Below are positions 297-22,456 of a DNA stretch of 35,875 nucleotides, piece by piece. The translations under genes and the position numbers were made by a program. The stretch comes from Candidatus Micrarchaeota archaeon. GTDB lineage: Archaea > Iainarchaeota > Iainarchaeia > Iainarchaeales > JAGVWC01. The notes under the pieces were generated by a model. That model was not told the origin of the DNA. It saw only the letters and a program-made list of their open reading frames with translations, and searched no databases. The stretch covers positions 1 to 35,875 of the forward strand of contig JAHJAQ010000117.1 of NCBI GenBank assembly GCA_018813975.1, in the 5' to 3' direction. The first letter of the stretch is position 1; the number at the start of each line of letters is the position of its first letter.

Positions 297-1004
297 TTAT
301 CCTCTCCGTGGTCGCGTTAAAATGGGTTTTCCAACGTTTTTTCGCGGTTTGTTGAGTGCTTTAGTCAGTTCGCGGTCTGGATTCATGGGGTCAAACCGTA
401 TGCGTGCTGCCGTGGCTGAGCGGAGGTCGCTGAGGGAATCCCCCACCATACGAACTTGGTTTTTGGGTACTTTGAACCGTTTTCCTAATCTTGCCAAAAA
501 ATCTTTTTTGAATTGGTGGGCGTTGCTGGCATTGGTTTCTCCGGTGTAGTGCCCACCGCGACTTTTGAACCAGCTGCCCTGATAATAATCGAATGGAATC
601 TTGAGCGTTTTTCCCATGGCCGTAATCAGTTCGTTGGATGAGAGGCTGAGCAAGGCAATTTTTTTTCCTTGTTTTTTCAAGCGGCGAAGTAACTCGATGC
701 TCTTTGGAAAAAACTTTTTTTTATTCTTTCTAACAAACGCTTGGGCGTCATCAAAAATCTGGGTAGTGGATTGGCCTTGAATCCCTTTTCCAAACAAGTC
801 AACCGCGGCTTGAGCGGCTTGTTTGTAGGGCCTCTTTCCGGCCCGATATTCTGCTAGGTTGTGTAAAAATTCTTTGTGAACATTTGGATCAAATCGTTTT
901 CGCGCCACTAAATAAGCAGCAAAATCTACTAGGAGGTGTCCATCATAGATTGGGCCGTCCACATCAAATGCAAAAACTTTCGGATTTGCCATATTAAAAA
1001 CCAT
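297..1004 (-). CDS. HAD-superfamily hydrolase (subfamily IB, SerB-like phosphatase fold)
   Basis: Motif I is FAFDVDGP (DxD nucleophile). A conserved S/T region follows (LLSLSSN), then K ... GDSLSDL (motif IV). The second ATG at 992 (MANPK...) is the more likely start: a TATA-like CTAAAAAAG on the coding strand lies about 19-29 nt upstream of it. Confidence 0.7.
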   Translation of the reverse strand: MVFNMANPKVFAFDVDGPIYDGHLLVDFAAYLVARKRFDPNVHKEFLHNLAEYRAGKRPYKQAAQAAVDLFGKGIQGQSTTQIFDDAQAFVRKNKKKFFPKSIELLRRLKKQGKKIALLSLSSNELITAMGKTLKIPFDYYQGSWFKSRGGHYTGETNASNAHQFKKDFLARLGKRFKVPKNQVRMVGDSLSDLRSATAARIRFDPMNPDRELTKALNKPRKNVGKPILTRPRRG

Positions 1005-1154: not shown

Positions 1155-2279
1155 TTATTGGGTGGCTTTTTTGGCAATATTGGCTTGTACGGGTTCAATG
1201 CCAGCTTTCTTCCACTCGGCTTCAATCACTTGACGGGTGTGAGAATCAAAACAAATTCCAATTCCAACGCCACCGCCGCCCCCACCGGAAAACTTTCCGG
1301 CAGCATTGTTTTGTTCTGCAATATCTGCTAGTTTAGCTAGGGCGGATGTTTCTAATTCTATGCCAGAGATGTGTGCTAGTTCCTGTAAGGCTCTTCGGTT
1401 TTTTTGTAATTGTGCAATAATCTTTTCTTTTTCGTTGTTTTGCATGGCCGGAACCAATTCTTCTACAATTTGTTTGATTTCATTCATTGTTTTCCAGTAT
1501 GCTTCTTTTTGCTCTTCTTTACACGCGTGTACTTTTTTAATCATTACTTTGGTGCTGGTATCTGGACCAGTATATCCAATAAGTAATTGAAAGTCTGGGG
1601 GTATTTCTAGCGAGTCCAAATGCAGGCTTGGCCAATCAGAATCAGCAATTTCTGCAATGTTTTTTCCTGAATTGAATTGTTCTTGCAACCATTTGGGATC
1701 AAATCGCTTGTACAAAACAATTCCCTCTACAGTAGAAGCGGCAATATCCACACTGCTTCCTACTTTTCCTTGGGCTTCAAAGTGAGCCATGCAGGCAAGT
1801 TTGAATACAAGTTCCACTCCTTGTTTGCTTTTGATTTCAGTTTCATGCAAGCTTAAAATGGCTTTTACAATAGCAACCACTGCCGCCCCGCTACTACCAA
1901 ATCCGAGTGTTTTAGTGGAACCATCCGGTAATTGTACAAATGATTCTTCCGAGCTAGTAGAAATACTAAACTTCTGAATCTTTTTTTCTTTTGCTTTTAA
2001 ATATTGCAGTGCTGTTGTAATCGCATATTGGGCCATTAACAATTTTTCTTTTTCTTCTTCACGCAAAGCACTTTTCCACTGGAGTTTTTCCCCATCAAAA
2101 ACGGCTTCTTTTTTTTCGAGTTTCAAATCTGGTGCAAAAACCGAGATGATTTCACTGGGTTCTAATTTAACTTGTACTTTTTTGTCAATTGCCATGACAA
2201 TGCCAGGAATTCCCAGTTCTAAACAGGCCCATTCTCCCGCCAGCATTAGTTTTCCGGGTGCTTCTGTTTGAATAGTCAT
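1155..2279 (-). CDS. mvaK2: Phosphomevalonate kinase (ERG8/MvaK2-type GHMP kinase)
   Basis: N-terminus APGKLMLAGEWACLE; GHMP motif II LGFGSSGAAVVAIVKA; GSSVDIAAS; C-terminal Gly-rich loop SGGGGGGVG. GGAGG (rc of 2287..2291) lies 7 nt upstream of the ATG. Confidence 0.8.
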   Translation of the reverse strand: MTIQTEAPGKLMLAGEWACLELGIPGIVMAIDKKVQVKLEPSEIISVFAPDLKLEKKEAVFDGEKLQWKSALREEEKEKLLMAQYAITTALQYLKAKEKKIQKFSISTSSEESFVQLPDGSTKTLGFGSSGAAVVAIVKAILSLHETEIKSKQGVELVFKLACMAHFEAQGKVGSSVDIAASTVEGIVLYKRFDPKWLQEQFNSGKNIAEIADSDWPSLHLDSLEIPPDFQLLIGYTGPDTSTKVMIKKVHACKEEQKEAYWKTMNEIKQIVEELVPAMQNNEKEKIIAQLQKNRRALQELAHISGIELETSALAKLADIAEQNNAAGKFSGGGGGGVGIGICFDSHTRQVIEAEWKKAGIEPVQANIAKKATQ

Positions 2280-2290
2280 TTTTTTACCTC

Positions 2291-3289
2291 CTAAAACAAG
2301 TGCTCTTCAATTATTTTTGCTGCTGGCCCTGGTTTGCACACTTCAATTTTTTGAATTCCTTTTATTTCATGCAATCGCTTTATCAATTCGGATTCGTCTT
2401 TTGCCAAACACATTACTTTTACTTGGGGCCCAGCATCCATTGTGAAATAACTTTCCAGCCCTTCTTCTCGCCACAAGGCAATGTTATGCATGATTTCCAC
2501 TGTAGTGGGTTGCCAATACAGTATCATGGGCTGCGTGGTAATCATAGTCGCGTGCATTTTGAGGGCATTAAATTCTGCTAGTTCCCCTACTTTAGTGAAG
2601 TCTTTTTGTTTGATAAATTCAGTCATTTGTTCGGAATCGTTTTGCGCGGTTTCTTTCCACATAGGATAATACGGGCACGTAGCGACTGTTTGAGCCATTC
2701 CAGCCCGGCTTTTCCATTTTTTTTGCTGGGTTCCCACAATATTTACAATCATTCTGAATTCGGACCATGCTTCCGGCTTTAAAATTTGCTCTGCAAAAGA
2801 ATCTTTTCCTTCAGAGTCTTCTCCTCTTAACCATTGTACAAAACCGCCTTCAATACTCCTAGAAGCAGAACCAGAGCCCCTCCTGGAAAGAATGGATAAT
2901 TCTTTTTTATCTAGGTTTAATCCTGCAGCTTTTGCTCCCGCCATGCTTAAAGCAGCCAATCCGGAAGCACTGCTTGCTAAGCCTGCTGCAGTTGGAAAAT
3001 TATTATTGCTTGAAACTTTTGTCTTAGTGGAAATGCCCGCCATTTCTCGAATTAAATCCAAGTGTTCACGGATTTCTTTTCCTTCTTTACTGTCCGCAGC
3101 CATTTTCTCTCCATTCAAAATAATTTCATCCGTCCCATATTTTTCATCAAACTCTACTGTGGTTTGAGTATAGAATTTGTCCAAGGTCATGGACGTGCTA
3201 CCATTATTGGGTAGCATCCATTTTTTGTCGCGTTTTCCCCAATACTTGGTTAACGCGATATTCGAGTGTGCTTGTGCTGTTGCTTTCAT
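2291..3289 (-). CDS. mvaD: Diphosphomevalonate decarboxylase (MDD family)
   Basis: SNIALTKYWGKRD, PTAAGLASSASGLAAL and RRGSGSASRSIEGGFVQW are classic MDD motifs. Its ATG overlaps the stop of the upstream HD gene (ATGA at 3289..3286). Confidence 0.85.
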   Translation of the reverse strand: MKATAQAHSNIALTKYWGKRDKKWMLPNNGSTSMTLDKFYTQTTVEFDEKYGTDEIILNGEKMAADSKEGKEIREHLDLIREMAGISTKTKVSSNNNFPTAAGLASSASGLAALSMAGAKAAGLNLDKKELSILSRRGSGSASRSIEGGFVQWLRGEDSEGKDSFAEQILKPEAWSEFRMIVNIVGTQQKKWKSRAGMAQTVATCPYYPMWKETAQNDSEQMTEFIKQKDFTKVGELAEFNALKMHATMITTQPMILYWQPTTVEIMHNIALWREEGLESYFTMDAGPQVKVMCLAKDESELIKRLHEIKGIQKIEVCKPGPAAKIIEEHLF

Positions 3290-4062
3290 TTTTTTATCAA
3301 CCTCTCAAATAATTTAAACTTCTTTCCAGTTATGTATAAGAGGGCTTCTTTTTTGTATTTTTTGCCCTTGCTATAAGTGGGATTAAAACTTTTTATAATT
3401 TCATTGATTGTTTTTCCTTTTTTTTGAACGTTTTCCGTGCAATGCTCAATCAATTCTAGTAACCAGGGCTCTTTTTTTTGGGTTGCTTCTAGGGATTCTT
3501 TAGACCATGCAAACTGGTATTCCGTTAATTTCCTGAATTTTTCCTGAAAAACGCTTGGATTGAATTTTTTGATGCGAACCGAGTGTTGGTATTCCATTGC
3601 GTCTATTGCATTCCAGTCTTTATAATCATCTACTTCTTGTACAAAGAGCGCTCTTCGAAATACTACTTGGGCCCCCATTTGTTCTAAGATTTTATCCGCC
3701 AAAAAAACCACTTGTTTTTGCATGTTCTGTTCTCCTTTGAGGTGCATTGCAACTAATTCAACAATTTTTCTTTGATCTTCTTCTGCCAATGAGAATTTTT
3801 TTAGTAGCTTTTTTGAAAGGAGGATTGAACTTTCTGTATGATCTTTTTTTTCGGTTTTAGGCCTGCCTAAATCATGAACTAATCCCGCAATGTACGCGCG
3901 TTCTTGTTCGTGCGAACTCATTCCTAATTGCTTTGCAAACCATTTGGCTCCGATTGCCACTCTTTTTGCATGTAAAAAATCGTGGCTTTTAAACTCCGTT
4001 TTGCTTTCCCGCTCTTTAACTGCTTTTTCAATTTCTTGAGTGGGTAATTTTTTTTCTTTCAT
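3286..4062 (-). CDS. HD-domain metal-dependent phosphohydrolase
   Basis: H...(FLHAKRV) then LVHDLGRP (HD dyad), plus downstream H/D residues. Translationally coupled (ATGA) to the MDD gene. Confidence 0.7.
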   Translation of the reverse strand: MKEKKLPTQEIEKAVKERESKTEFKSHDFLHAKRVAIGAKWFAKQLGMSSHEQERAYIAGLVHDLGRPKTEKKDHTESSILLSKKLLKKFSLAEEDQRKIVELVAMHLKGEQNMQKQVVFLADKILEQMGAQVVFRRALFVQEVDDYKDWNAIDAMEYQHSVRIKKFNPSVFQEKFRKLTEYQFAWSKESLEATQKKEPWLLELIEHCTENVQKKGKTINEIIKSFNPTYSKGKKYKKEALLYITGKKFKLFERLIKK

Positions 4063-4106
4063 AGCTTGCCTCTTAATTTGGTTAATATTAAAAATCAGTT
4101 TTTATG

Positions 4107-4973
4107 TTATGGTTTAACTGCTTTCATGATCATTACTGGATAGGTTATCTCATAGTGGTCTCCACCCACTTTTTTGATTTGGTATGCTCTTCGTGCATCG
4201 GGAAATCTTTCGAGTAATCTTTCTAGTGCTTGAACATATTCTCTTACTTTTCCGGCCGGCATTTGGTTGCTTTTTACCCAATCTCTTGTATTTACTTTAG
4301 AAGTCGTCATTTCTACTTCCGTCACGTTAAAACCGGCCTGTTGCATCATTTTTCTCCATCCTTTTTCAGTGGGTACATTGTTTCTAGTAAAAAAGTCTCC
4401 TGTTGCGTGGTTTTTGGCAATGCGTTCTGCATTTTGGAATTCTTGTAATCCTTCTGGTGAAACCATATCCATTAGCACAAACACCCCGCCACGTTTCATG
4501 ATACGATTGGTTTCGCGTAGGATTATCATTTGTTCTTTTTGCGGAACGTTTTTAACCGCAAAACGCGAAACCGCATGGGTATACGTGTTTTCCCATCGAA
4601 GGGTTCTCCTTAAATCTGCGGCATGGGTTGCTCTAAGGGGCCCTCTGGCCACTTCGCTTAAAGCGCCCGGAGAAAGATCAATAAAACTGGGAATCACACT
4701 GGCGCCTCTTTTTCTTAGAGCTGCAGCTACTTTACTTCCAACCAATCCCCTTCCAGACCCCAAATCAACTAGTTTTACCCCTAATTGTCCGCGTTTTACG
4801 CCCATCATGCGTGCTATTGTATTATAGACATCTGTTCGTCGATAAATCGCGGGTCCTTTTGCGTGAACAACCGTAGCATACTTTCTTGCAGTTCCAGTTC
4901 TAAAATCGGTTCTTTTTCGCCCTTGTTGTCCGGCTCTTTTTGGTCCGGTTCCGCTACCACTAGTTTTCAGCAT
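4107..4973 (-). CDS. Class I SAM-dependent methyltransferase (UbiE/Methyltransf_11-like) with a basic Arg-rich N-terminal tail
   Basis: Motif I VKLVDLGSGRGLVG; post-I acidic FIDLS; motif RIMKRGGVFVLMDM. C-terminal W...R...F...A-K-P extension as in YcgJ-type methyltransferases. Visibly higher GC than its neighbours. Confidence 0.7.
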   Translation of the reverse strand: MLKTSGSGTGPKRAGQQGRKRTDFRTGTARKYATVVHAKGPAIYRRTDVYNTIARMMGVKRGQLGVKLVDLGSGRGLVGSKVAAALRKRGASVIPSFIDLSPGALSEVARGPLRATHAADLRRTLRWENTYTHAVSRFAVKNVPQKEQMIILRETNRIMKRGGVFVLMDMVSPEGLQEFQNAERIAKNHATGDFFTRNNVPTEKGWRKMMQQAGFNVTEVEMTTSKVNTRDWVKSNQMPAGKVREYVQALERLLERFPDARRAYQIKKVGGDHYEITYPVMIMKAVKP

Positions 4974-5006
4974 TTTATCCCTTGTATATTTGGGTTTCTG
5001 ATTTTT

Positions 5007-5579
5007 TTATTCTTTTTGTGCCACTACCATCCAGTTCACATTTCCAGTGTCTTTTTCTCCTGGTTTGGCAAAAGGATATTCTGCTCCGTCAGTGTTAAAA
5101 CCGTATTGTCGAGCACCTTCTGCCATGGCTTTTCCTTCTCGATACGCTCGATTTCGATAGCCCGCTACATTCAAAAGGCGTGGTTGGTCTTCTCTTTCTC
5201 TTTCCATCCAATCCCTGTTTTTTCGGCACCACGTAAAAAAATTAAATTCCTTTGAGTTTTCAATATCTCGCCATAGTTTTTGTTTAACGTGTTCTGGATA
5301 ATCAAAATAGCGTGGTCCCATCCAAAAATTCAGGAACGAAACATATGCATCAAATATGGTTACTGGTCTTCCTTCAGCACGGGCAATTACTGTTCTTTTT
5401 AGCTCTGGCACTTTAACTGTTGGGCTGGTGGCTTCTGCACTACCCCATTCCCAATCCACAAATACTCCTTTTGGTTTTAGTAGGCGTCGCACGCTTCTTA
5501 ATAAGGGGGATAAATCATTTGCAAAGTTGATGGTGGAAGCGCCGGCAGTAATCATATCTACTTTTCCGATTAAATCCAA
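5007..5579 (-). CDS. SAM-dependent methyltransferase, C-terminal part (motifs IV-VI plus C-terminal extension); same frame as 5610..6335
   Basis: VDMITAGASTINFA and LLKPKGVFVDWEW are the later Rossmann-fold methyltransferase motifs. There is no own SD or TATA. Possible starts are TTG 5579 or ATG 5555. It is probably half of a disrupted or recoded single gene spanning 5007..6335. Confidence 0.5.
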   Translation of the reverse strand: MDLIGKVDMITAGASTINFANDLSPLLRSVRRLLKPKGVFVDWEWGSAEATSPTVKVPELKRTVIARAEGRPVTIFDAYVSFLNFWMGPRYFDYPEHVKQKLWRDIENSKEFNFFTWCRKNRDWMEREREDQPRLLNVAGYRNRAYREGKAMAEGARQYGFNTDGAEYPFAKPGEKDTGNVNWMVVAQKE

Positions 5580-5609
5580 GAATTGTTTGGTGTATCGTTG
5601 CTGTCCTTT

Positions 5610-6335
5610 TTAATGAAAGGGTCTTCTCATTTGTTTGAATGCAACTGCCGCACTATAAAAGCTGGCGGGCAGCACTAGAATGTTTCGCTTTGGAATTCCC
5701 AATCCCACTAGTTGGGGAACCGCATGTTCTCGCACCACTCGTTCGTTTATATCCACTAAAACCACTTTCAATTGTTTTCTTTGCTCGGGACTTAATCCTT
5801 TTACCGCACCAACAATAGTTCCGCCTGCAAACGTTCCAATATCCAAAATGGTTCTGGGTTTTATTTGATTTCCAAAAAATCGTTTTGTAATCCTTCCGAC
5901 TCGATCGTTCATGAGATTGGGATTTCCTTTTCCCGCCTTAGCAATAGTATCAATGTATGCTTTTGGAGCAGTTGCCCAAAATTTGCTTCCTTTGATTCCC
6001 CTTTCTCGAATAGCCTCCCATACGGTTTTTTCGAATCCCCTTGCCAGACTTGGATAGCGCTTTAACAATCGAGTAATGGGTGGAAGACGTTGCAATTGTC
6101 CAATTACCGCCGGAATGTTTACAAAACTAGCCACGTTTTCTCTTGGCAATTTGGATAACTCGTGTTCAATATGATAGAGGGGATAGCCTTTTTTTGGTCC
6201 TTGGTGTGAGTGGGGATGAAAGCGTGCTTGAATCATTGGATGGCTTGCCTCTACAAGCGGTCGTTTGTTGCTTGTTCCCATTGCTTGGGCGATTTTTCGA
6301 GCTAATTGTCTTTTTCGGACCGTTTTAGAGGGCAT
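5610..6335 (-). CDS. SAM-dependent methyltransferase, N-terminal part (unknown ~165 aa domain plus Rossmann motifs I-II), ending at an in-frame TAA
   Basis: ILDIGTFAGGTIVG (motif I) and VVLVDINERV (motif II). The frame continues directly into ORF 5007..5579 after a single TAA (5612..5610). Confidence 0.6.
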   Translation of the reverse strand: MPSKTVRKRQLARKIAQAMGTSNKRPLVEASHPMIQARFHPHSHQGPKKGYPLYHIEHELSKLPRENVASFVNIPAVIGQLQRLPPITRLLKRYPSLARGFEKTVWEAIRERGIKGSKFWATAPKAYIDTIAKAGKGNPNLMNDRVGRITKRFFGNQIKPRTILDIGTFAGGTIVGAVKGLSPEQRKQLKVVLVDINERVVREHAVPQLVGLGIPKRNILVLPASFYSAAVAFKQMRRPFH

Positions 6336-6365
6336 ACAACAAAAAACCGTTTCTGCTATAAAACA

Positions 6366-7292
6366 TTATCCAACCGTGGTTTGAACGGTTGTGAATCCTT
6401 TTTCTTGCATTGCTTTTGCCACTTTTTCTTGTAATGCTGCTCCTGGCGTTAATGCAATCATATACCCTCCGCCACCGCCACCCGTCATTTTAGCGCCGAT
6501 TGCGCCGTTTTCGCGTGCAATTGCAATCAATTCTTCTAACTTTGGATGCGATACACCAATTTCTTGTAACAATTCGTGATTGCGGTTCATTAGTGTTCCC
6601 AATTCTTCAATATTTCCATTGGCAAATGCTTCTTTTGCTTTTAGTGCAATTTGTTCTGCTTCTTCAAATAATGGATTGTATTTTGCTGGTTCTTTTTCTT
6701 TTCGTTCTTGTACGCCCAACACCAATTTTTTAGTATCCCCCACGACTCCAGTGTTTCCCATTACAATTTCTACTGGACCAGCGCTCTTCATTTTTTCAAA
6801 AGTGGGGGGATTTCCGCGCTGATACCACAATAATCCGCCAAACGTGGCAGCTGTATTATCAATTCCGGATGGTTTTCCATGGTACCCCAATTCCCCTTGA
6901 AACGCAACCTCATTAATCTGATCATTGTTTAATCCTTTTTTGAAATGCTCGTTTAGGGCGCGTGCAATGGCGGCACAACTCGCGGCACTGGCCCCCACCC
7001 CACTAGCAGCTAACAAATCCCCTGTCAAGGTAATTCGAATAGGGGTTTCTTTTGGGTTAATTTGCATGGCTTTGAAAATATATTGTAAGGATTCTTTTTG
7101 CTGTTCAAATTTTTCTTGTTTGTAACCGGGTGTTTCCGGGCGTTTATCCACTAATTCATAATTTTCTCCTTCAATTGCTTCTACGATTGCAGTGGTTTTT
7201 GAATTGATACCGCACACTATTGCGTGGTTTCCGGAAACCACAAAGTGTTCGCCAAACAAGATTACTTTTCCAAATCCTTCTCCGTATGCCAT
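6366..7292 (-). CDS. mvk: Mevalonate kinase
   Basis: MAYGEGFGKVILFGEHFVV; GHMP motif DLLAASGVGASAASCAAIARAL; GKPSGIDNTAATFGG; C-terminal MTGGGGGGYM. The tracked ORF extends to 7493, but that extension overlaps the DUF35 gene and has no MVK similarity. The ATG at 7292 matches the MVK N-terminus. Confidence 0.85.
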   Translation of the reverse strand: MAYGEGFGKVILFGEHFVVSGNHAIVCGINSKTTAIVEAIEGENYELVDKRPETPGYKQEKFEQQKESLQYIFKAMQINPKETPIRITLTGDLLAASGVGASAASCAAIARALNEHFKKGLNNDQINEVAFQGELGYHGKPSGIDNTAATFGGLLWYQRGNPPTFEKMKSAGPVEIVMGNTGVVGDTKKLVLGVQERKEKEPAKYNPLFEEAEQIALKAKEAFANGNIEELGTLMNRNHELLQEIGVSHPKLEELIAIARENGAIGAKMTGGGGGGYMIALTPGAALQEKVAKAMQEKGFTTVQTTVG

Positions 7293-7351: not shown

Positions 7352-7753
7352 TTAACTTACTTTGAACTTGTAACCGTAGGCAATCGCGCCTTCGTGGTCG
7401 GTGTCTTGGATTTTGCGGAACACTTTTTTTACTTGGGCCCCGGTCTTGATTTTTTCTTTTGGTGAATCCACGATCTGGCTTAAAATCATGCACTTGTTTC
7501 CCAAGTCAATTAACGCTAAAAAGTATGGGGTTTCGTGCTGGAATCCAATCGGTCCTACAAATACCTCTGTGAAAGAAACGATTTTTCCAGTGCGCGGCAT
7601 TTCTTTTGAAACCATTTTTCCTTTTCGCCTGCAATTCGGACAAAACAATCGGCCTGGAAAAAAATCGGTTTTACAGGTTTCACAATGACAACCGCGTAAT
7701 AAGTACCGCTCCGGATACCGTCTCCAATGAATTGCAATTGCATTATCTGCCAT
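7352..7753 (-). CDS. DUF35 OB-fold/zinc-ribbon protein (scaffold of the archaeal thiolase/HMG-CoA synthase complex)
   Basis: Rubredoxin-like CETCKTDFFPGRLFCPNCRRKG followed by an OB-fold-like C-terminus. It starts 1 nt after the thiolase stop. Confidence 0.8.
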   Translation of the reverse strand: MADNAIAIHWRRYPERYLLRGCHCETCKTDFFPGRLFCPNCRRKGKMVSKEMPRTGKIVSFTEVFVGPIGFQHETPYFLALIDLGNKCMILSQIVDSPKEKIKTGAQVKKVFRKIQDTDHEGAIAYGYKFKVS

Positions 7754-7754
7754 T

Positions 7755-8924
7755 TTATTTCACCTGTGCTTTTTTGAAAATGTGCACGACCGCAGTTGCA
7801 CCGCTACCACCCACATTATGGGTTAAACCAATTTTAGCATCTTTTACTTGTCTTTCTTTGGCCAATCCATTTAATTGAAAAAACATTTCTACTGCTTGTT
7901 TGATTCCAGTCGCCCCCACGGGATGGCCGCAAGCCTTTAATCCGCCAGAAGGATTGATTGGAATTTCTCCTTTCAAACTTGTTTTGCCTTTTTCAGTTGC
8001 TTTTCCCCCATCTCCTTTTTTAAAAAAACCAAGATCTTCTATGGCAAGAATTTCTGCAATTGTAAAACAATCATGTACCTCTGCCAAATCAATATCGCTT
8101 GGTTTGAGGTGGGCTTCTTCAAAGTCTAGTTTGGCGGCTACTTTTGTTGCCATTAATTCTGTTAAACTCTTTCTTCCCGTTAAAGCCAGTGAATCGGATG
8201 CTTGGGTGCTTGCCAATATTTCAATGGCATTTTCACTGATTTTTTTGGCTTTGCTGGTTTCGCACAAAATAACCGTGGCTGCGCCATCGCTAATCGGAGA
8301 ACAATCTAATAATTTTAAGGGAGAAGCCACATAGCCCGAGTTCATAACATCTTGTATTGTAATCTCGCGGTGAAATTGGGCATTGGGATTAAACATGGCA
8401 TTATAATGGTTTTTTACCGCTACTTGTGCCATTTGTTCTTCTGTGGTTCCAAACGCTTCCATGTGCTTTCTGGCCAGCAACGCATACAAGGCCGGAAAGG
8501 TTGCGCCGTGAAATAATTCGGTTTCTTGGTCTCCAGCCCCCCCTAATGCAAAGCCTGCTTCTTCAACTGAAATTTCTGTCATTTTTTCCACGCCACCAAC
8601 CGCGACTACATCGTACAATCCACTTGCCACTGAAATGTACGCGTTTCGCAAAGCAACGCCACCCGAAGCACACGCAGCCTCTAATCGCGTAGCCGGCAAG
8701 GGAGTCAATCCTAATTCATCTGCAATCAAAGCGCCAATGTGTTCTTGTCCTACAAACCTTCCGGATGCCATGGTGCCGCCATAAATGGCTTGAATGGTTT
8801 TGCCTTCAATACCACTGGATTCTAAGGCCATTAAACCTGCTTTTCCAATGAGGTCTCTAAAGCTTTCATTCCAGTGTTCTCCAAAAGCCGTTTGGCCAGC
8901 TCCAATAATACTAACGCTTCTCAT
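7755..8924 (-). CDS. Acetyl-CoA C-acetyltransferase (archaeal thiolase)
   Basis: Active-site Cys context LEAACASGGVAL, plus GHPVGATG and NVGGSGAT near the C-terminus. Confidence 0.85.
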   Translation of the reverse strand: MRSVSIIGAGQTAFGEHWNESFRDLIGKAGLMALESSGIEGKTIQAIYGGTMASGRFVGQEHIGALIADELGLTPLPATRLEAACASGGVALRNAYISVASGLYDVVAVGGVEKMTEISVEEAGFALGGAGDQETELFHGATFPALYALLARKHMEAFGTTEEQMAQVAVKNHYNAMFNPNAQFHREITIQDVMNSGYVASPLKLLDCSPISDGAATVILCETSKAKKISENAIEILASTQASDSLALTGRKSLTELMATKVAAKLDFEEAHLKPSDIDLAEVHDCFTIAEILAIEDLGFFKKGDGGKATEKGKTSLKGEIPINPSGGLKACGHPVGATGIKQAVEMFFQLNGLAKERQVKDAKIGLTHNVGGSGATAVVHIFKKAQVK

Positions 8925-9313
8925 GGTTTTCCCTTTCGCTTGAATTTATTTGGGTCTATTATTATCCTATTGCTCTTCGCACCTTCAAATTTTATTCCAA
9001 TCAGGGTACAACAAAGTTCAAACTTTTCTCTTACCCTGTTTGCTCTTTGTGGATATCCATTTTCTTCGAGCCACCGTATTGTTTGAATAAATGTTCCAGT
9101 AATTTCTTTTATTTTGTTTGCCGCCCTTTTACTAGTATTTAAATTTTTACTGCCTAACTCCCTTCCAATTGCTTCAAGTCCTTCCATTGATAATCTTCCT
9201 AGTTTGGAGTTGACATACCTTGATACAGCAGCTATTTCCTGGTTTGTTTTTTTATTTTTTTTTCCCGTTTTTTTTGTTGTTTTCTTTTTTCCAAACATTT
9301 TTTTTCCTTCCAT
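8921..9313 (-). CDS. Hypothetical small basic protein (130 aa) with Lys-rich termini
   Basis: The ORF fills the whole gap between the HMGCS stop (9 nt upstream) and the thiolase ATG (ATGA overlap at 8924..8921). I recognise no motif. Confidence 0.5.
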   Translation of the reverse strand: MEGKKMFGKKKTTKKTGKKNKKTNQEIAAVSRYVNSKLGRLSMEGLEAIGRELGSKNLNTSKRAANKIKEITGTFIQTIRWLEENGYPQRANRVREKFELCCTLIGIKFEGAKSNRIIIDPNKFKRKGKP

Positions 9314-9322
9314 TTAGTTTTT

Positions 9323-10372
9323 TTATAAACTCTTCAGTTTTTTTCGGTGTTTTGCGTATTCTGAATAACTAATGTATTCTTTTTCTTGTATCATTTCTAA
9401 AACCGATATGGGCGCGCGTTTTGTTGAACTGTTTTTGGTTGTTGTTAAAACAAATGCATCGCTTCCGGCTCCACTACCATAACTAACCGCTAAAATCTTT
9501 TCTCCTGGTTTGGCAATATCTAATACGGATGCCAATCCTATCATAGTAGAACCGGAATAGGTGTTTCCAATTAAGGGCGTTATTAGCCCTTGTTTTAATT
9601 GTGCTTCTGTAAAACCGAGTTTTTTAGCCGCAATGCGAGGAAACTTTCCATTTGGCTGGTGAAAAATAACGTGGCTGAATTCTGTTGGTTTTAATCCTGT
9701 TTTTTCGAGAATTGCGTGGGTCGCGCCAAACACATGTCTAAAATAAGCGGGTTCTCCTGTAAACCTTCCGGCGTGTCTGGGAAATTCTGCGTGTTGTCTT
9801 CTCCAAAAATCCGGGGTGTCGGTGGTAAATGAAAAAGTTTCATCCAAGGTCGCGATTATTTCGTTTTTTTCTTTTCCCACAATAAAACCGGCTCCACCGC
9901 TTCCGGCAGTAAATTCCAGGGCATCGTTTGGTTTTCCTTGGGCAGTATCGGCTCCCACACTCAAACCATAGTTTATCATGTCACTTTTTACGAGTCCCAT
10001 GCACACTTGTATTCCGGCTGTTCCTGCTTTGCACGCAAATTCTAAATCTGCTGCCATAAAAGCAGGTCCGGCATTAATCGCATCGCCTACTATTGTAGCG
10101 GTTGGTTTTACAGCGTATGGATGGCTTTCGCTTCCCACAAAAATAGCCCCTATTTTTTGGCTGTCCAATTTTGCAGTTTCCAATGCCATTCGAGCTGCTT
10201 CTACACTAATTGTGGCGGTATCTTCGTCCCAGGCAGCCACTGCTTTTTCTTGTAAGCCCAAACCAGCACTAGTCTTTTTGCCGTCTTTTTTCCAAGTTTT
10301 AGCAATTTCTTCAATGGTAATGCGTAGTCTGGGTACAAAAAAACCATAGCCCACTATTCCGGCTTCTTGCAT
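9323..10372 (-). CDS. Hydroxymethylglutaryl-CoA synthase (archaeal type)
   Basis: GSESHPYAVKPTA; catalytic Cys context LEFACKAGTAG; HQPNGKFP; GNTYSGS. TTTTAAAA at 10396..10403 lies 24-31 nt upstream of the ATG. Confidence 0.85.
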   Translation of the reverse strand: MQEAGIVGYGFFVPRLRITIEEIAKTWKKDGKKTSAGLGLQEKAVAAWDEDTATISVEAARMALETAKLDSQKIGAIFVGSESHPYAVKPTATIVGDAINAGPAFMAADLEFACKAGTAGIQVCMGLVKSDMINYGLSVGADTAQGKPNDALEFTAGSGGAGFIVGKEKNEIIATLDETFSFTTDTPDFWRRQHAEFPRHAGRFTGEPAYFRHVFGATHAILEKTGLKPTEFSHVIFHQPNGKFPRIAAKKLGFTEAQLKQGLITPLIGNTYSGSTMIGLASVLDIAKPGEKILAVSYGSGAGSDAFVLTTTKNSSTKRAPISVLEMIQEKEYISYSEYAKHRKKLKSL

Positions 10373-10607: not shown

Positions 10608-10640
10608 TCGGTTTTTTTTTTGGTAAAAACCGATTTTATT
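10608..10640 (+). promoter_or_regulatory. Terminator-like hairpin plus T-tract in the PPDK 5' leader (possible attenuator)
   Basis: TCGGTTTTT (10608..10616) pairs with AAAAACCGA (10625..10633) across an 8-nt loop, followed by TTTTATTT and then GGAGG. TATA-like TTTATATG/TTTAAAAC lie at 10566..10582 upstream. Confidence 0.3.
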
Positions 10641-10654
10641 TGGAGGAATTTTAT

Positions 10655-13303
10655 TTGACTGAGCAATTAGTATGGTCTTTTCGCGAAAACAATAAATCAT
10701 TAGAAGAAAGTGTTTTGTTGTTGGGAAACAAAGGCGCCCAATTAGTGGAAATGACGCGCATTGGCTTGCCTGTTCCCCCGGCTTTTACAATTTCAACCAA
10801 TGCCTGTAGAAGCTATCTTTCGAATAAGAAAAAATGGCCGGCTGATTTGGAAAAACAAGTCAAGCAAAAGATTGTTGAATTGGAAAAAGAAATAAATCGA
10901 AAACTAGGCGATACCGAAAATCCCCTATTGGTTTCGGTGAGAAGCGGTTCTTTTATTTCCATGCCGGGCATGATGGAAACCATTTTGAATCTTGGTTTGA
11001 ATGATGCTACTGTAAAAGGGCTGGCCCAAAAAACCAATAATCCGCGAATGGCTTGGGATAGTTATCGAAGACTTATTCAAATGTTCGGGGATGTTGTGTT
11101 GGGAATCGATAGTGCTCTTTTTGAAGGTCTTTTAACAAAAGCCAAGCAAAAAAAAGGAACCGAATTTGATACCGAATTAGAGGAAGGTGATTTGAAAGAA
11201 TTGGTATTACACTACAAAAAATTAGTGAAAGAAAAAACCAAAAAAGAATTTCCCCAAGATATTTGGGAACAATTGCGCTTAGCCATTAACGCGGTATTCG
11301 ATTCCTGGAATGCTGATAGAGCTATTGCGTATCGTCGCATTCACAATTTGCAAGAAGGTGCTGGAACCGGGGTAACCATTCAAGCCATGGTTTTTGGAAA
11401 CAAAGGAGAGCACTCTGCAACGGGCGTTGCGTTTTCACGCAATCCCAGTACGGGAGAAAAAGGATTGTACGGAGAATTTTTAGTAAACGCGCAAGGAGAA
11501 GATGTGGTGGCGGGAGTTAGAACGCCGCAACCAATCGTGGAATTGGAAAAGTTTAATCTTGAGCTTTTTGAACGCCTAAAAAGAATCGCAGTTTTATTGG
11601 AAAAACATTATAAAGAAATGCAGGATTTTGAATTCACGATTGAAAATGGAAAATTGTTTTTATTGCAAACCAGAACCGGAAAGAGAACCGCACAAGCAGC
11701 CATAAAAATTGCTATTGATATGGTAAAAGAAAAATTGATTTCCAAAGAAGAAGCCGTTCTACAAATAGATGCTAATCAGCTAAACCATGTCTTGCACAAG
11801 CAATTAAAACCAGCAGCTAAAAAGAGTGCTCAATTATTGGCAACTGGTTTAGCGGCTTCTCCGGGTGCTGCAATTGGAAAAGTGGTTTTTTCGGCCCAAG
11901 AAGCCTTGCATGAAAGTGAAAAAGACCCTTCTACTCCATTGATTTTGGTGCGACCCGAAACTTCTCCGGAGGATATTGAGGGCATTAGTATTGCAAAAGG
12001 AATCCTAACCAGTACGGGTGGTTTAACATCTCACGCGGCGGTTGTAGCGCGTGGAATGGGAAAGCCTTGCGTTTCGGGTTGTGACGCCATTGTAATTAAT
12101 GAAGAAAATGGTTCTTTTTTCGTGCAGTCTAATGGCGATTCTGTTACGGTTAAAGCAGGAGAATGGCTTTCATTGGATGGGGGTATGGGAGAAGTTTTTT
12201 TGGGAAAACTGGATGTTGAAGCGCCATCTCTTTCGGGCGATTTTGCTACTTTAATGGATTGGGCGGATTTTTTTCGAAAACTAGAAGTGCGAACCAATGC
12301 CGATACCCCCAAAGATGCTAGCGTTGCCAAGAATTTTGGAGCAGAAGGAATTGGATTGTGTAGAACCGAACACATGTTTTTTGATAAAGACAGGCTGCCC
12401 ATTATGCGACAAATGATTATGGCGGATTCGCCTGAAAAAAGAAAAAAAGCCTTGGAAAAGCTATTGCCTTTTCAACGAAAAGATTTTGAAGGATTGTTTG
12501 AGGTCATGAATGGCTTGCCAGTCACCATCCGATTATTGGATCCGCCTTTACACGAATTTTTACCCAAAACAAAAGAAGAAATGCAGGCATTGGCAAGTGA
12601 AATGAATGTTTCCATTGAATTTGTTCGAAAAATTAATAATAGTTTGAAAGAGTTTAATCCCATGCTTGGGTTTAGAGGTTGTAGATTAGGAGTTGTTTTT
12701 CCGGAAATAACCAAAATGCAGATTAGAGCGGTTTTTGAAGCCGCTCTAAATGCCCAGCGAAATGGCATTAAAGCAACTCCCGAAATCGAAATTCCGTTGG
12801 TGGCATTTGAAAAAGAATTTGATATAATCTTGGAATTAGTAAAAAAGATTGCACTAAAATTAGATCCAAAAGAAAGCGTGGATTATAAAATAGGGTGTAT
12901 GATCGAGGTTCCACGCAGTGCATTAATTGCAGATAAACTAGCGAAAAAATCCGATTTTTTTTCATTTGGAACCAATGATCTAACCCAAACTACTCTGGGT
13001 TTTTCACGAGATGATACTGGAAAGTTCATTGCTGCCTACAAAGACAAGAAAGTGTTTGATTGGGATCCTTTTGTTTCCATTGATGAAATCGGGGTGGGAG
13101 CTTTAATGCAAATCGCGGTTGAAAAAGCACGAGAATCCAACCCCGAAATTGAAATTGGTATTTGTGGAGAACACGGGGGCGATCCCCGTTCAGTAGAATT
13201 TTGTCACAAACTAGGATTGGATAATGTTTCTTGTTCGCCGTATCGCGTTCCCATTGCACGGCTGGCAGCAGCACAAGCGGCCATTAAAGAAAAACTGGCT
13301 TAG
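10655..13303 (+). CDS. ppdK: Pyruvate, phosphate dikinase
   Basis: LGNKGAQLVEMTRIGLPVPPAFTIST; phospho-His loop GGLTSHAAVVARGMGKPCVSG; C-terminal PEP/pyruvate domain GLCRTEHMF ... FFSFGTNDLTQ ... CGEHGGDP. The tracked ORF starts at TTG 10640. However, GGAGG at 10642..10646 followed 8 nt later by TTG 10655 has the same geometry as the pilin gene start, so 10655 is preferred. Confidence 0.85.
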   Translation: MTEQLVWSFRENNKSLEESVLLLGNKGAQLVEMTRIGLPVPPAFTISTNACRSYLSNKKKWPADLEKQVKQKIVELEKEINRKLGDTENPLLVSVRSGSFISMPGMMETILNLGLNDATVKGLAQKTNNPRMAWDSYRRLIQMFGDVVLGIDSALFEGLLTKAKQKKGTEFDTELEEGDLKELVLHYKKLVKEKTKKEFPQDIWEQLRLAINAVFDSWNADRAIAYRRIHNLQEGAGTGVTIQAMVFGNKGEHSATGVAFSRNPSTGEKGLYGEFLVNAQGEDVVAGVRTPQPIVELEKFNLELFERLKRIAVLLEKHYKEMQDFEFTIENGKLFLLQTRTGKRTAQAAIKIAIDMVKEKLISKEEAVLQIDANQLNHVLHKQLKPAAKKSAQLLATGLAASPGAAIGKVVFSAQEALHESEKDPSTPLILVRPETSPEDIEGISIAKGILTSTGGLTSHAAVVARGMGKPCVSGCDAIVINEENGSFFVQSNGDSVTVKAGEWLSLDGGMGEVFLGKLDVEAPSLSGDFATLMDWADFFRKLEVRTNADTPKDASVAKNFGAEGIGLCRTEHMFFDKDRLPIMRQMIMADSPEKRKKALEKLLPFQRKDFEGLFEVMNGLPVTIRLLDPPLHEFLPKTKEEMQALASEMNVSIEFVRKINNSLKEFNPMLGFRGCRLGVVFPEITKMQIRAVFEAALNAQRNGIKATPEIEIPLVAFEKEFDIILELVKKIALKLDPKESVDYKIGCMIEVPRSALIADKLAKKSDFFSFGTNDLTQTTLGFSRDDTGKFIAAYKDKKVFDWDPFVSIDEIGVGALMQIAVEKARESNPEIEIGICGEHGGDPRSVEFCHKLGLDNVSCSPYRVPIARLAAAQAAIKEKLA

Positions 13304-14394
13304 TTTTCTAGTATAATCGGATTGTTTCCGCTAATTTCTTTTATTATCACATCTTCAGAAGCCACCTGGCCCGCTTCATTGAAGGTTATAATATTAGAAT
13401 ATCCCTCATAATTCTCCACTTTTAAAAGAAACGCTCGAATCTCTTCCGTGGTTTTGTTTCCTTCTTTAACGGCGTTTAAAACAAGCGCGGTCATGTCATA
13501 GGTTGTAGCGGCACTAATGGCGCTCGGTTTTTTTCCAAATCGTGCTTCAAATCGTTCACTGAATTCTTGCATTTTTTCGCGTTGCTTGGGCGCGGCATAA
13601 ATAATACCGTCTGCGAGAGTTCCTGCTTGTTCCAAAAAAACCTCACTTTCTGCACGAGAAAAAGGAACATACATTTGCTGTAAAACGCCTAGCTCAAATA
13701 ATTGCCTGTTAAATAGAATCTGTCCGTTATCCGTTGCAATTACTGTATAAATAACATCCGGGTTTAGTTCTTTTATTTGCAATATTTCGGTTCTAAAATC
13801 AGTGCTGCCATCATTGAGCTGGAATTCCTTTAATGTATTTATCCCGCCACTTTTTTCCAGTTCATTCTTAAGAATTTCAATATGCCCTAAAGACCATGAA
13901 TTATTGGAATATACTAAAACAATTTTTTCAACTGCGTTTTTTTTCATATACTGTACGGCTTTTTTTATTTGGGAACGCTCGCTTGGAGTAGCACTGAAAA
14001 AATAGTCAGATTCCCGCCAAGGCTGTTCGCCACCCATCCATGGCGAAATAAACAAGACTTTTTTTTCTGCTGAAATGGGTGCTACTACTTCACTAAACTC
14101 CGCCCAAACAGGGCCAATAATAACCGGCACATTATCCACCTCAATCAATTTGTGTCCGGCAGTTACCGTTGTTTGCAAATCTGAGTGAAAATCTTCTATA
14201 ATATATTCTACTTCAAGTCCAGAGTCTTCAATGGCTAAGAGAAATCCTTCTTTTGCCGCTTCTCCTGCAAAAGCAGCATACCCCGTTAACGGAAAAAGCC
14301 CCCCAATTTTTAGTTCACTTGTTGGCGTGTTTTGCACGCATCCATTCAAAACAACAAGCAATGCAATAAATACAATTAGAAAACCTTTTTTCAT
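13300..14394 (-). CDS. Periplasmic-binding-protein type 1 (LivJ-like) ABC substrate-binding lipoprotein
   Basis: Signal peptide MKKGFLIVFIALLVVLNGC (lipobox-like Cys), then a Leu/Ile/Val-binding-protein-like fold pattern (GGLFPLTG...AG; VIIGP). The ATG at 14394 is preceded by AGGTG. There is no permease or ATPase gene in the window. Confidence 0.65.
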   Translation of the reverse strand: MKKGFLIVFIALLVVLNGCVQNTPTSELKIGGLFPLTGYAAFAGEAAKEGFLLAIEDSGLEVEYIIEDFHSDLQTTVTAGHKLIEVDNVPVIIGPVWAEFSEVVAPISAEKKVLFISPWMGGEQPWRESDYFFSATPSERSQIKKAVQYMKKNAVEKIVLVYSNNSWSLGHIEILKNELEKSGGINTLKEFQLNDGSTDFRTEILQIKELNPDVIYTVIATDNGQILFNRQLFELGVLQQMYVPFSRAESEVFLEQAGTLADGIIYAAPKQREKMQEFSERFEARFGKKPSAISAATTYDMTALVLNAVKEGNKTTEEIRAFLLKVENYEGYSNIITFNEAGQVASEDVIIKEISGNNPIILEN

Positions 14395-14412
14395 ACAAAA
14401 CACCTATGGAAG

Positions 14413-22210: not shown

Positions 22211-22456
22211 TTGTATGCTGTTATGAAAGGAAATGGAAAGTTTGCTGCCCTGGTTCGAGCGTACTTTTTTTTAACAACTGCGGCTTTTTTGATTGCGATT
22301 ACGTGTTTTTCATTGGTGCAAGGCCTTTTAGTGCATTTTGGGGGGGCTATGACAGATGCTTTTATATTTTATTTTTTGGGCTGGGTTACCTTAGGAGCGG
22401 GTTTGCTTCTTTTTGCGCATGGTAGAAGCAAGTTGCGTGTTATTTCTATTTCCTAG
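22211..22456 (+). CDS. Hypothetical small membrane protein (2 predicted TM helices)
   Basis: ORF only; two hydrophobic stretches; no recognisable motif. Its stop overlaps the stop of the convergent RecJ-like gene. Confidence 0.3.
   Translation: MYAVMKGNGKFAALVRAYFFLTTAAFLIAITCFSLVQGLLVHFGGAMTDAFIFYFLGWVTLGAGLLLFAHGRSKLRVISIS

Follow-up and report, generated by a model that had tools for sequence, protein, structure and literature searches.

Contig JAHJAQ010000117.1 of a Candidatus Micrarchaeota archaeon (assembly GCA_018813975.1), analysed over 35,875 nt (the window), carries a variant mevalonate (MVA) gene cluster, one with conserved, lineage-specific methyltransferase and phosphohydrolase components. 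Three genes, encoding the methyltransferases MT2 and MT1 and the HD-domain phosphohydrolase HD, stand in this cluster between the genes for mevalonate kinase (MVK) and diphosphomevalonate decarboxylase (MDD), and we found that all three families recur in or near MVA clusters of Micrarchaeota, Iainarchaeota/Diapherotrites, Forterrea and Aenigmarchaeota. Together with a third methyltransferase family, MT3, they are persistent cluster members across several DPANN phyla and pathway variants. We propose that MT2, MT1 and HD belong natively to the pathway, as accessory genes whose products would methylate and dephosphorylate compounds of the isopentenyl diphosphate/dimethylallyl diphosphate (IPP/DMAPP) type, a combined reading to which we give a probability of about 0.55.

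The open reading frames of the window place these genes on the minus strand in the order MVK, MT2, MT1, HD, MDD and PMK (phosphomevalonate kinase), with spacers of 30 nt (MVK-MT2), 33 nt (MT2-MT1) and 44 nt (MT1-HD) and with the HD stop overlapping the MDD start in an ATGA at 3286-3289. A first-pass annotation of this DNA had given the gene positions, the common strand, gaps of 30-44 nt and the ATGA overlap, and all of these proved to be as described:

MT2: 5007-6335, minus strand; one frame of 442 codons plus an in-frame stop, class I S-adenosylmethionine (SAM)-methyltransferase fold (predicted)
In-frame TAA within MT2: 5610-5612, minus strand; G-to-T change of a conserved Glu codon GAA, reading cat TAA aaa
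MT1: 4107-4973, minus strand; 288 aa, predicted class I SAM methyltransferase, BH2331/YcgJ-like, with a basic, poorly conserved N-terminal tail
HD: 3286-4062, minus strand; 258 aa, predicted metal-dependent HD-domain phosphohydrolase, PF01966
HD stop/MDD start overlap: 3286-3289, minus strand; ATGA
MVK: 6366-7292, minus strand; mevalonate kinase, TIGR00549, 252 bits against a cut-off of 163
MDD: 2291-3289, minus strand; diphosphomevalonate decarboxylase, TIGR01240, 314 bits against a cut-off of 171, Pfam MVD-like_N and MDD_C
PMK: 1155-2279, minus strand; phosphomevalonate kinase, TIGR01220, 227 bits against a cut-off of 166

With MVK, PMK and MDD each scoring above the curated NCBIfam equivalog cut-off, the cluster is of the classical (eukaryote-type) kind, and the MVK/PMK/MDD route has already been reported in some Micrarchaeota (PMC6107057, PMC11052028). 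All being co-directional, MT2, MT1 and HD are probably co-transcribed with MVK, MDD and PMK; they belong to a minus-strand run of tightly packed genes that extends from 10372 to 297 (HMG-CoA synthase (HMGCS; HMG, 3-hydroxy-3-methylglutaryl), a small open reading frame, thiolase, DUF35, MVK, MT2, MT1, HD, MDD, PMK and a HAD phosphatase). The MVK-MT2 spacer (6336-6365) contains a T6 run, and TTTATA lies about 25 nt upstream of the MT2 ATG.

When MT2 was followed across genomes, it lay no more than one gene from an MVA gene in all 11 distinct loci with flanking sequence (11/11), at protein identities of 45-67%. These loci are the window (counted as one with L002), L001, L003, L004 (with L010), L005 (with L012), L006, L007, L008, L009, L011 and L020. 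The clusters concerned are classical MVK/PMK/MDD clusters in the window, L001, L003, L004, L009, L011 and L020, archaeal-type clusters (AcnX, UbiD/UbiX, IPK) in L005 and L006, and a mixed cluster in L007, and the Thermoplasma-type cluster of L008 lacks MVK and has M3K, MBD-like and IPK genes. The clearest archaeal-type example is the complete, tightly overlapping 13-gene MVA operon at 2920-15503 of L006, which runs HMGR, HMGCS, thiolase, DUF35, a 231-aa gene, MT2, MVK, UbiX, UbiD, AcnX, a 138-aa open reading frame (probably the AcnX small subunit), IPK and IDI2, with a 4-nt overlap between MT2 and MVK. MT2 may precede or follow MVK depending on the locus, in L007 it is on the opposite strand yet within the cluster, and in L020 it is kept with MVK, MDD and PMK in a neighbourhood that has neither thiolase nor HMGCS. 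The flanking genes outside the MVA pathway are not the same at different loci. A functional link would be expected to give such a pattern, a chance neighbourhood would not.

Other genes were seen inside these clusters. The 231-aa gene of L006 has no Pfam match, and unassigned genes occur near the same position in L008 (438 aa, flanked by DUF35 and MT2) and L005 (240 aa, flanked by HMGCS and thiolase). Directly after MVK in L020 (9511-10404) and L005 (10413-11345) is a second, divergent MVK-like GHMP kinase paralogue of about 300 aa; the copies from the classical (L020) and archaeal-type (L005) clusters are 53% identical to each other and about 25% identical to MVK. L005 also encodes, at 13749-14846, a 365-aa protein with a PEP-utilizers mobile domain only, between UbiD and a long HD paralogue.

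The linkage extends to MT1 and HD. In the relative L001 the order MVK-MT2-MT1-HD-MDD-PMK is the same as in the window, with an MT1 that is 47% identical, and L018 has MVK, an MT1 homologue and HD in succession. The synteny by which the first-pass annotation had proposed to judge its idea of an isoprenoid branch is thus present, both in L001 and, at the level of families near MVA genes, in many DPANN lineages. A word-seeded search for MT1 gave one relative only; when 1.84 billion cluster representatives were searched exhaustively with HMMER, 257 matched at E<=1e-3, 11 of them at E<=1e-30. Among MT1 relatives, one in L016 lies beside a PMK fragment on a 1.3-kb contig, the sole return of a metagenome scan, and a 37%-identical homologue in L017 lies between a NUDIX gene and a HAD phosphatase, next to IPK and two MDD-like genes (MBD/M3K-like) of a Thermoplasma-type cluster. 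The MT1-like C-terminal domains of the long proteins P0143, P0145, P0159 and P0203, which are protein-kinase fusions (E about 1e-10 to 1e-6), were set aside as too distant for function.

HD-family genes lie beside MDD or within the cluster in 13 lineages. The short form adjoins MDD in the window, L001, L013, L014, L015 and L019 and an MT1 homologue in L018; in the four contexts additional to the first two (4/4: L013, L014, L015, L019 (Aenigmarchaeota)) it is immediately downstream of MDD. The coupling of HD and MDD that had been read from the ATGA is kept in relatives, as adjacency in those four and as the same 4-nt overlap in L001 (HD fusion 10895-12262, MDD 12259-13254), where, as in P0037, HD is fused to a histidine-phosphatase domain. 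A long HD paralogue (300-360 aa), which shares its ligands and its C-terminal helical extension with short HD, is found inside the MVA clusters of L003, L005, L009, L011, L014, L019 and L020; the 359-aa gene after MT2 in L003, at one point considered an MT1 homologue, proved to be such a paralogue.

MVA clusters without MT2 often encode the third methyltransferase family, MT3 (330-370 aa), whose core is distantly MT2-like (hhalign probability 85-92%) and whose partner in L014 and L019 is the long HD paralogue. Across all clusters, methyltransferase genes (MT1, MT2 and MT3) stand directly next to phosphatase genes in seven combinations, and four unrelated phosphatase superfamilies recur: HD, histidine phosphatase (His_Phos_1), HAD and Nudix. 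The HADs of the related clusters L008, L009, L017 and L020 belong to subfamilies other than the HAD-IB of the window.

MT3: L014 7816-8808; L015 9082-10182; L017 12646-13761; L019 8962-10041; motifs HHHA and ADWHN..WEHP
METHYLTRANSFERASE-phosphatase pairs: MT1-HD (window, L018), MT1-HisPhos::HD (L001), MT1like-HAD (L017)
Further METHYLTRANSFERASE-phosphatase pairs: MT2-HDlong-HisPhos (L003), MT2-HAD (L008), HDlong-MT3 (L014, L019)

A word-seeded search of 5.8 billion proteins identified 33 MT2 homologues of 420-480 aa, unnamed or generically named and all archaeal (Micrarchaeota, Diapherotrites/Iainarchaeota or unclassified archaea), and a scan of GTDB species genomes gave seven MT2 loci from 'Candidatus Iainarchaeum', 'Candidatus Forterrea' and unnamed archaeal metagenome-assembled genomes. 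By these searches MT2 appears to be a DPANN-only family. Its alignment has the conserved motifs RERGIK, PRTILDIGTFAGGT, VLVD, RPLHE, GAATINFA, FV(N/D)W(D/E)WGS, SF.NFW and RNRAYR, and the candidate SAM motifs LDIGTFAGGT, VLVD and LLKPGG are invariant or nearly so, from which SAM binding is predicted. The basic residues R112, K115, R381, R396 and R399 are invariant as well, as are some Trp and Phe residues. Matches of MT2 to Pfam methyltransferase models were below threshold only (22 bits against a cut-off of 27), and none was found to NCBIfam models. For the homologue P0003, which shares 63% identity with the intact MT2 of L002, AlphaFold used the family alignment to give a model with a mean predicted local distance difference test score (pLDDT) of 88.5 and a predicted template-modelling score (pTM) of 0.89. 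Its class I Rossmann core is preceded by about 150 aa of helical sequence and followed by about 130 aa at the C-terminal end. Foldseek compared this model with the PDB and returned 395 matches at E<=1e-3, the top 50 all being class I methyltransferases. Small-molecule enzymes lead the list, namely the thiol methyltransferases GtmA/TmtA, Coq5 and the polyketide C-methyltransferases CurJ/DszA/PsoF, with further matches to CouO/NovO, UbiG, phosphoethanolamine methyltransferases (PMT) and SgvM. The only prenyl-diphosphate methyltransferase in it is 9sm5, which acts on gamma-presodorifen diphosphate (gamma-PSPP), at rank 48, and the first RNA-modifying enzymes in it are CmoA, which makes carboxy-SAM, at rank 18 and the rRNA methyltransferase NpmB1 at rank 44. 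In the sequence-profile search of the PDB the best matches were C-methyltransferase domains of polyketide synthases (PKS), DisA at E=0.03 and CurJ at E=0.5, both insignificant, and no characterised prenyl-diphosphate C-methyltransferase was found at E<=10. MT2 is accordingly modelled as a class I SAM-methyltransferase fold that lies outside every curated family searched.

In Pfam, MT1 scores 32.8 bits on Methyltransf_23, where the cut-off is 27, and 24.1 bits on Ubie_methyltran, where it is 20.1, and its family alignment conserves VDLGSGRG (the glycine-rich motif I) and FIDLS (the acidic residue after strand 2); by these thresholds and motifs it is a bona fide member of the class I SAM-dependent methyltransferase superfamily. 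The first-pass annotation had called both genes class I SAM methyltransferases, a call that Pfam upholds for MT1 and that for MT2, below Pfam thresholds, the AlphaFold model and Foldseek uphold. In the PDB profile search MT1 matched 1vl5 (B. halodurans BH2331) at E=9.8e-9, with query residues 57-292 aligned to chain residues 26-252, and, weakly, 1xxl (B. subtilis YcgJ) at E=0.19. The alignment to 1vl5 takes in the core, the C-terminal lid, a D-x-x-S/A-P-E motif after strand 5 and the W...K-P end, a full-length homology by which MT1 is a member of the BH2331/YcgJ-like group. Assignment to UbiE/MenG/COQ5 was not obtained with NCBIfam models (TIGR01934 23 bits against 158; UbiE equivalogs about 20-23 bits against 216-327), MT1 is far below the BioC and ArsM cut-offs there, and no characterised prenyl-diphosphate C-methyltransferase was found in the PDB profile search at E<=1. 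The label 'DVU_1556 methyltransferase'/CpaM/BioC for MT1, like 'DVU_1551 NTP transferase' for HD, was rejected, being far below cut-offs (25-33 against 155-315 bits) and a matter of generic domain similarity. MT1 and MT2 can be aligned to each other over the generic core only (hhalign probability 95%, 19% identity), and in both an Asn follows strand 4 and a D-x-x-S-x-E motif follows strand 5.

HD matches PF01966 at 40 bits (cut-off 22). Across 56 homologues of about 255 aa, residues H27, H31, H63, D64, R67, H107, D123, K124 and E127 are invariant and H75 is nearly so; these His and Asp positions would suit the extended dinuclear H..HD..H..H..D pattern described for the HD superfamily (PMC8177086). 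The profile matched 2pq7, a structural-genomics hydrolase, at E=1.4e-15, and the AlphaFold model (pLDDT 95.2) has B. subtilis YpgQ as its top Foldseek match (template-modelling (TM) score 0.70-0.72 normalised to the target), with a YpgQ/2PQ7-like core and a C-terminal helical extension of about 65 aa. The predicted ligands, the modelled fold and the homology place HD in the YpgQ/2PQ7 subgroup of HD-domain phosphohydrolases, and the conserved MDD neighbourhood suggests a physiological substrate other than (d)NTPs. One candidate role, supply of dimethylallyl phosphate for UbiX/prenyl-FMN, suits archaeal-type clusters (L005) and fails for HD in classical clusters that lack UbiD.

The in-frame TAA of MT2 appears to be recent or artefactual. 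The sister contig L002 (GCA_018824985.1) has GAA at this site and an intact 442-aa MT2, the two MT2 genes differing at 1 of 1329 nt and the whole overlap of the contigs at 2 of 8727 nt, so that the description of MT2 as interrupted is right for the window and not for its near-identical sister. The codon lost is that of E242, the nearly invariant Glu of the conserved RPLHE (HE) motif in the family alignment, and the stop reflects either an error of assembly or sequencing or a nonsense mutation that arose very recently. Recoding (selenocysteine, pyrrolysine or an alternative code) was rejected because L002 has GAA at this conserved Glu; the codon is moreover TAA, the normal stop of most window genes. 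The other difference from L002 is non-synonymous and lies at position 8125 in the thiolase gene (7755-8924), leaving the thiolases 99.7% identical; both single-nucleotide differences thus alter a protein, one by creating a stop. In 'Candidatus Forterrea' (L011, 96-1429) the MT2 homologue is also divided, between two overlapping frames (96-974 and 971-1429), apparently a second interrupted MT2 owing to a frameshift or an assembly error.

That MT2, MT1 and HD are functionally linked accessory genes of the MVA pathway we regard as likely. Since linkage is indifferent to the mid-pathway type, their substrates are expected among the metabolites that would be common to all variants, namely acetoacetyl-CoA, HMG-CoA, mevalonate and IPP/DMAPP with the prenyl diphosphates derived from them. 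Because phosphohydrolases need a phosphorylated substrate, the end products IPP and DMAPP are singled out: they would be the only phosphorylated pathway compounds of this set, the CoA esters being phosphorylated in the CoA moiety alone. The target of the module may therefore be IPP/DMAPP or short prenyl (di)phosphates, with MT1 and MT2 transferring methyl groups from SAM and HD (elsewhere His_Phos_1, HAD or Nudix) removing phosphate or diphosphate. Recurrent pairing of methyltransferase and phosphatase would correspond to two steps on one molecule, and the outcome could be a side branch for tailoring or overflow, in which C5 units are diverted or modified, giving either modified units or an overflow valve. 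This specific chemistry, methylation and (partial) dephosphorylation of IPP/DMAPP-type compounds, is put forward tentatively. A bolder version, in which an MT2/MT3-type methyltransferase and a phosphohydrolase would form an integral, unrecognised step of DPANN isoprenoid-precursor synthesis making methylated (C6) units from IPP/DMAPP or from acetoacetyl-CoA/mevalonate, we consider doubtful.

Several observations weigh against the proposal. No specific similarity of MT1 or MT2 to characterised prenyl-diphosphate C-methyltransferases was found with the PDB profile, Pfam, NCBIfam or Foldseek searches, so that the first-pass suggestion of an undescribed branch of isoprenoid-precursor metabolism stands as a genomic association and its specific relation to IPP or geranyl diphosphate (GPP) C-methyltransferases does not. 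The closest characterised relative of HD, YpgQ, acts on nucleotides and not on prenyl diphosphates, and neither a terpene synthase nor another enzyme that would use methylated units was seen in the clusters. MT2 often adjoins thiolase, HMGCS and DUF35 genes, which fits an upstream substrate equally well. The basic N-terminal tails would also be compatible with binding of nucleic acids or membranes, the TTTATA/T6 of the MVK-MT2 spacer is possibly an internal archaeal promoter or terminator, or AT-rich by chance, and the interruption of MT2 in the window, with the apparent frameshift of L011, could mean that MT2 is dispensable.

Among other explanations, we judge it unlikely that the three are hitch-hiking housekeeping genes, with MT1 and MT2 methylating RNA or proteins, HD hydrolysing nucleotides of the pool, and genome compaction instead of a metabolic link accounting for the shared operon. 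The linkage to MVA genes holds in 11/11 MT2 loci, in all HD loci and in all informative MT1 loci, and it survives rearrangement of gene order, inversion of strand and change among three pathway variants while the other flanks are unconserved. RNA-binding domains such as PUA, THUMP or S4 were not found in Pfam scans, and the first RNA methyltransferase in the MT2 Foldseek list comes at rank 44; the best matches are thus not the RNA or protein methyltransferases that the first-pass annotation had named as its alternative, since the structural neighbours of MT2 are small-molecule methyltransferases. What this explanation has in its favour is the basic N-terminal tails of both MT1 and MT2, the (d)NTP hydrolysis of YpgQ as nearest characterised relative of HD, and a broader MT1 family of hundreds of members without assigned function, some of them protein-kinase fusions.

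The chief mechanistic rival, itself improbable in our estimate, moves the methylation upstream: MT2 (and MT3) would C-methylate acetoacetyl-CoA, HMG-CoA or mevalonate and so open a route through methyl-mevalonate to C6 units, with the phosphatases doing something separate. PKS C-methyltransferase domains methylate beta-ketoacyl thioesters in this manner. Such domains (DisA, CurJ) are the best matches of MT2 in the PDB profile search, although at insignificant E-values (0.03, 0.5), and the C-methyltransferases of CurJ, DszA, PsoF and AprA are among its top Foldseek matches and have the longest alignments, although at low TM-scores (0.30-0.35). MT2 directly follows the thiolase-HMGCS-DUF35 genes in most loci, and all three variants that have MT2 share acetoacetyl-CoA, HMG-CoA and mevalonate. 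In our reading of the alignment, however, MT2 has an Asn at the position of the presumed catalytic His of the C-methyltransferase domain, and in L020 MT2 stays with MVK, MDD and PMK, with thiolase and HMGCS not nearby. Nor would an upstream substrate explain the recurrent pairing with phosphatases.

A regulatory module seems to us quite improbable. Here MT2/MT3 would tune flux by methylating or binding MVA enzymes or by sensing SAM, and HD would break down a signalling nucleotide or keep ATP and ADP in balance around the three steps, of kinases and decarboxylase, that use ATP; the tight coupling of MT2 to MVK (4-nt overlap in L006) and of HD to MDD (ATGA) could be taken in this sense, (p)ppGpp and c-di-GMP hydrolases are among the HD-family enzymes (PMC8177086), and one YpgQ structure is a complex with ADP. 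Yet none of the clusters showed a gene for a signalling-nucleotide synthase, the methyltransferases have small-molecule enzymes as structural neighbours, and the presence of four unrelated phosphatase superfamilies at the same position suggests a simple, interchangeable catalytic role. Still less credible, at the level of very unlikely, is the non-orthologous replacement of a missing canonical step (IDI, IPK or HMGR) by one of the proteins: the 35.9-kb window has no HMGR or IDI, but L006 has MT2 in addition to all canonical archaeal-type enzymes (HMGR, HMGCS, thiolase, DUF35, MVK, UbiX, UbiD, AcnX, IPK and IDI2), IDI2 occurs together with HD in L001 and L013, and to our knowledge neither methyltransferase nor HD folds carry out the IDI, IPK or HMGR reactions.

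Composition bears on the origin of the genes. The MT1+MT2 segment has a G+C content (GC) of 0.428, in the top 1.3% of 2.2-kb windows (mean 0.397, standard deviation 0.013), and the hand counts behind the first-pass claim of a compositionally foreign, horizontally acquired segment (34/60 and 17/60 G+C) are exact. At third codon positions, however, the content (GC3) is 0.329 for MT1 and 0.327 for MT2, both below the gene mean of 0.353; because the excess sits in codon positions 1 and 2, it reflects the amino-acid composition of Arg/Gly/Ala-rich proteins. By a leave-one-out synonymous-codon score MT1 and MT2 are among the contig's most typical genes, and their Arg codons are the host-preferred AGA and CGA. 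The observation that the methyltransferases use Arg holds against the neighbouring MVA enzymes (R/(R+K) 0.58 for MT1 and 0.53 for MT2 against 0.11-0.28) and is not peculiar to them, since ThyX and T2SE reach 0.51 (gene mean 0.34, standard deviation 0.15). With GC3 below average, typical codon usage and an MT2 family that appears confined to DPANN archaea, neither the foreign composition nor the horizontal acquisition is borne out. A horizontally acquired methyltransferase island is hardly tenable, since the high-GC, Arg-rich segment has a GC3 under the contig mean and among the most typical synonymous codon usage, the MT2 homologues are from DPANN archaea only with their Arg residues (RERG, RNRAYR) conserved, and the same arrangement recurs in L001 at 47-62% identity. 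We read MT2, MT1 and HD as native accessories of the DPANN MVA cluster and not as a foreign insert.

The remaining genes of the cluster in the window, and the small basic open reading frames of several clusters, are:

HAD-IB family phosphatase: 297-1004, minus strand; Pfam Hydrolase/HAD, TIGR01490/TIGR01488 below or near cut-offs
DUF35/OB-fold protein: 7352-7753, minus strand; OB_ChsH2_C
Thiolase: 7755-8924, minus strand; Thiolase_N/C Pfam matches in the orthologues of L001 and L002
Small basic open reading frame: 8921-9313, minus strand
Archaeal HMG-CoA synthase (HMGCS): 9323-10372, minus strand; ACP_syn_III_C/HMG_CoA_synt_N
Small basic open reading frames of several clusters: window 8921-9313 (minus strand); L001 1312-1683 and 3697-3921; L003 3172-3522, 4658-5011 and 6230-6559

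The HAD-IB phosphatase lies downstream of PMK across a 150-nt gap and is a possible further accessory phosphatase of the cluster. It is compositionally odder than MT1 or MT2, with the second highest GC of the genes analysed (0.451, after a 146-aa open reading frame at 30672-31112) and the second highest GC3 (0.445, after a 251-aa open reading frame at 16100-16855). Small, very basic open reading frames of 70-130 aa without Pfam match lie between the HMGCS, thiolase and DUF35 genes of several clusters; those of the window, L001 and L003 occupy equivalent positions, and no sequence conservation was found among them. Pfam scans of the window proteins gave no HMGR, IDI or IPK on the 35.9 kb, and a GGPP-synthase-like polyprenyl synthetase (21037-22119, minus strand) lies 11 kb from the MVA cluster. 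Adjoining the cluster is an 887-aa PPDK-like protein (10640-13303, plus strand), labelled from its own sequence and the Pfam matches of its L003 orthologue; the same adjacency occurs in L003. A second PEP-utilising enzyme on the contig is an 807-aa PPDK_N/PEP-utilizers protein (26663-29086, minus strand). Further along, a 934-aa DHH/DHH-CID/DHHA1 (RecJ/GAN-like) protein (22453-25257, minus strand) is split by an intein with a LAGLIDADG homing-endonuclease domain, and the ThyX gene (18270-19949, plus strand), at 559 aa, is unusually long: the best Thy1 match covers residues 331-521 and a second stretch also matches, leaving the N-terminal half unexplained.

Archaea obtain their membrane-lipid precursors from the MVA pathway alone, and its variants (classical, haloarchaeal, Thermoplasma-type and archaeal) are central to arguments on early lipid evolution. 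Surveys of the archaeal pathway list DPANN clusters and mention no methyltransferase or phosphatase components (PMC6107057, PMC11052028), and full-text searches of a limited collection of the literature found no link of methyltransferases or HD proteins to archaeal MVA clusters. If DPANN archaea do modify C5 units, new lipid chemistry and new biomarkers would follow; if instead the genes form a dedicated methylation/dephosphorylation valve on IPP/DMAPP, they would bear on how tiny-genome symbionts control a costly pathway. The C6 reading, if true, would mean non-canonical methyl-branched isoprenoid lipids or other products and a fifth flavour of the archaeal MVA pathway, and the enzymes would interest synthetic biologists seeking non-canonical terpenoid building blocks. 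Should they prove to be housekeeping enzymes, the case would counsel caution about guilt by association in compact genomes.

Among known systems, the bacterial prenyl-diphosphate C-methyltransferases are class I SAM-dependent enzymes that act on end products of the MVA and methylerythritol phosphate pathways (PMC8677530). With the GPP 2-C-methyltransferases, the IPP methyltransferase of Streptomyces monomycini and the sodorifen/chlororaphen farnesyl diphosphate (FPP)/PSPP methyltransferases, the likeness is one of logic only, MT1 and MT2 having predicted class I folds tied genomically to the pathway that makes the substrates; specific homology to these enzymes (GPPMT/IPPMT/BezA/SodC) was not found for either in the profile and Foldseek searches, and any likeness in activity is hypothetical. 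The bacterial genes adjoin terpene synthases in secondary-metabolite clusters, unlike MT1 and MT2, which belong to a primary archaeal MVA operon with no terpene synthase nearby. BH2331 (1vl5) and YcgJ (1xxl) are structural-genomics proteins of low identity to MT1; as they have no known function, they give no substrate clue, and MT1 differs from them in its basic N-terminal tail and its MVA-cluster context. The PKS C-methyltransferase domains (CurJ, DisA/DszA, PsoF and AprA MT2) have an N-terminal helical lid and a class I core of a size similar to MT2, but MT2 stands alone, has an Asn at the putative catalytic His and matches them weakly (E=0.03-0.5, TM 0.30-0.35). In eukaryotes, insect juvenile-hormone synthesis uses a HAD-type FPP phosphatase and then juvenile-hormone acid methyltransferase, and plants control the ratio of isopentenyl phosphate to IPP through Nudix/IPK. 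By analogy the logic may be the same, with both enzymes downstream of IPP or a phosphatase as flux valve, but the proteins are unrelated and the oxidation steps of the juvenile-hormone route are absent from the clusters. The nearest relatives of HD, B. subtilis YpgQ (5dqv/5dqw) and 2pq7, have in common with it the HD core and metal ligands at about 19-20% identity and Foldseek TM-scores of 0.68-0.72 (normalised to the target). YpgQ, which depends on Mn, splits diphosphate from (d)NTPs with low catalytic efficiency (PMC8177086). Unlike them, HD carries the C-terminal helical extension of about 65 residues that is kept in both the short and the long DPANN forms, and it has MDD as its neighbour.

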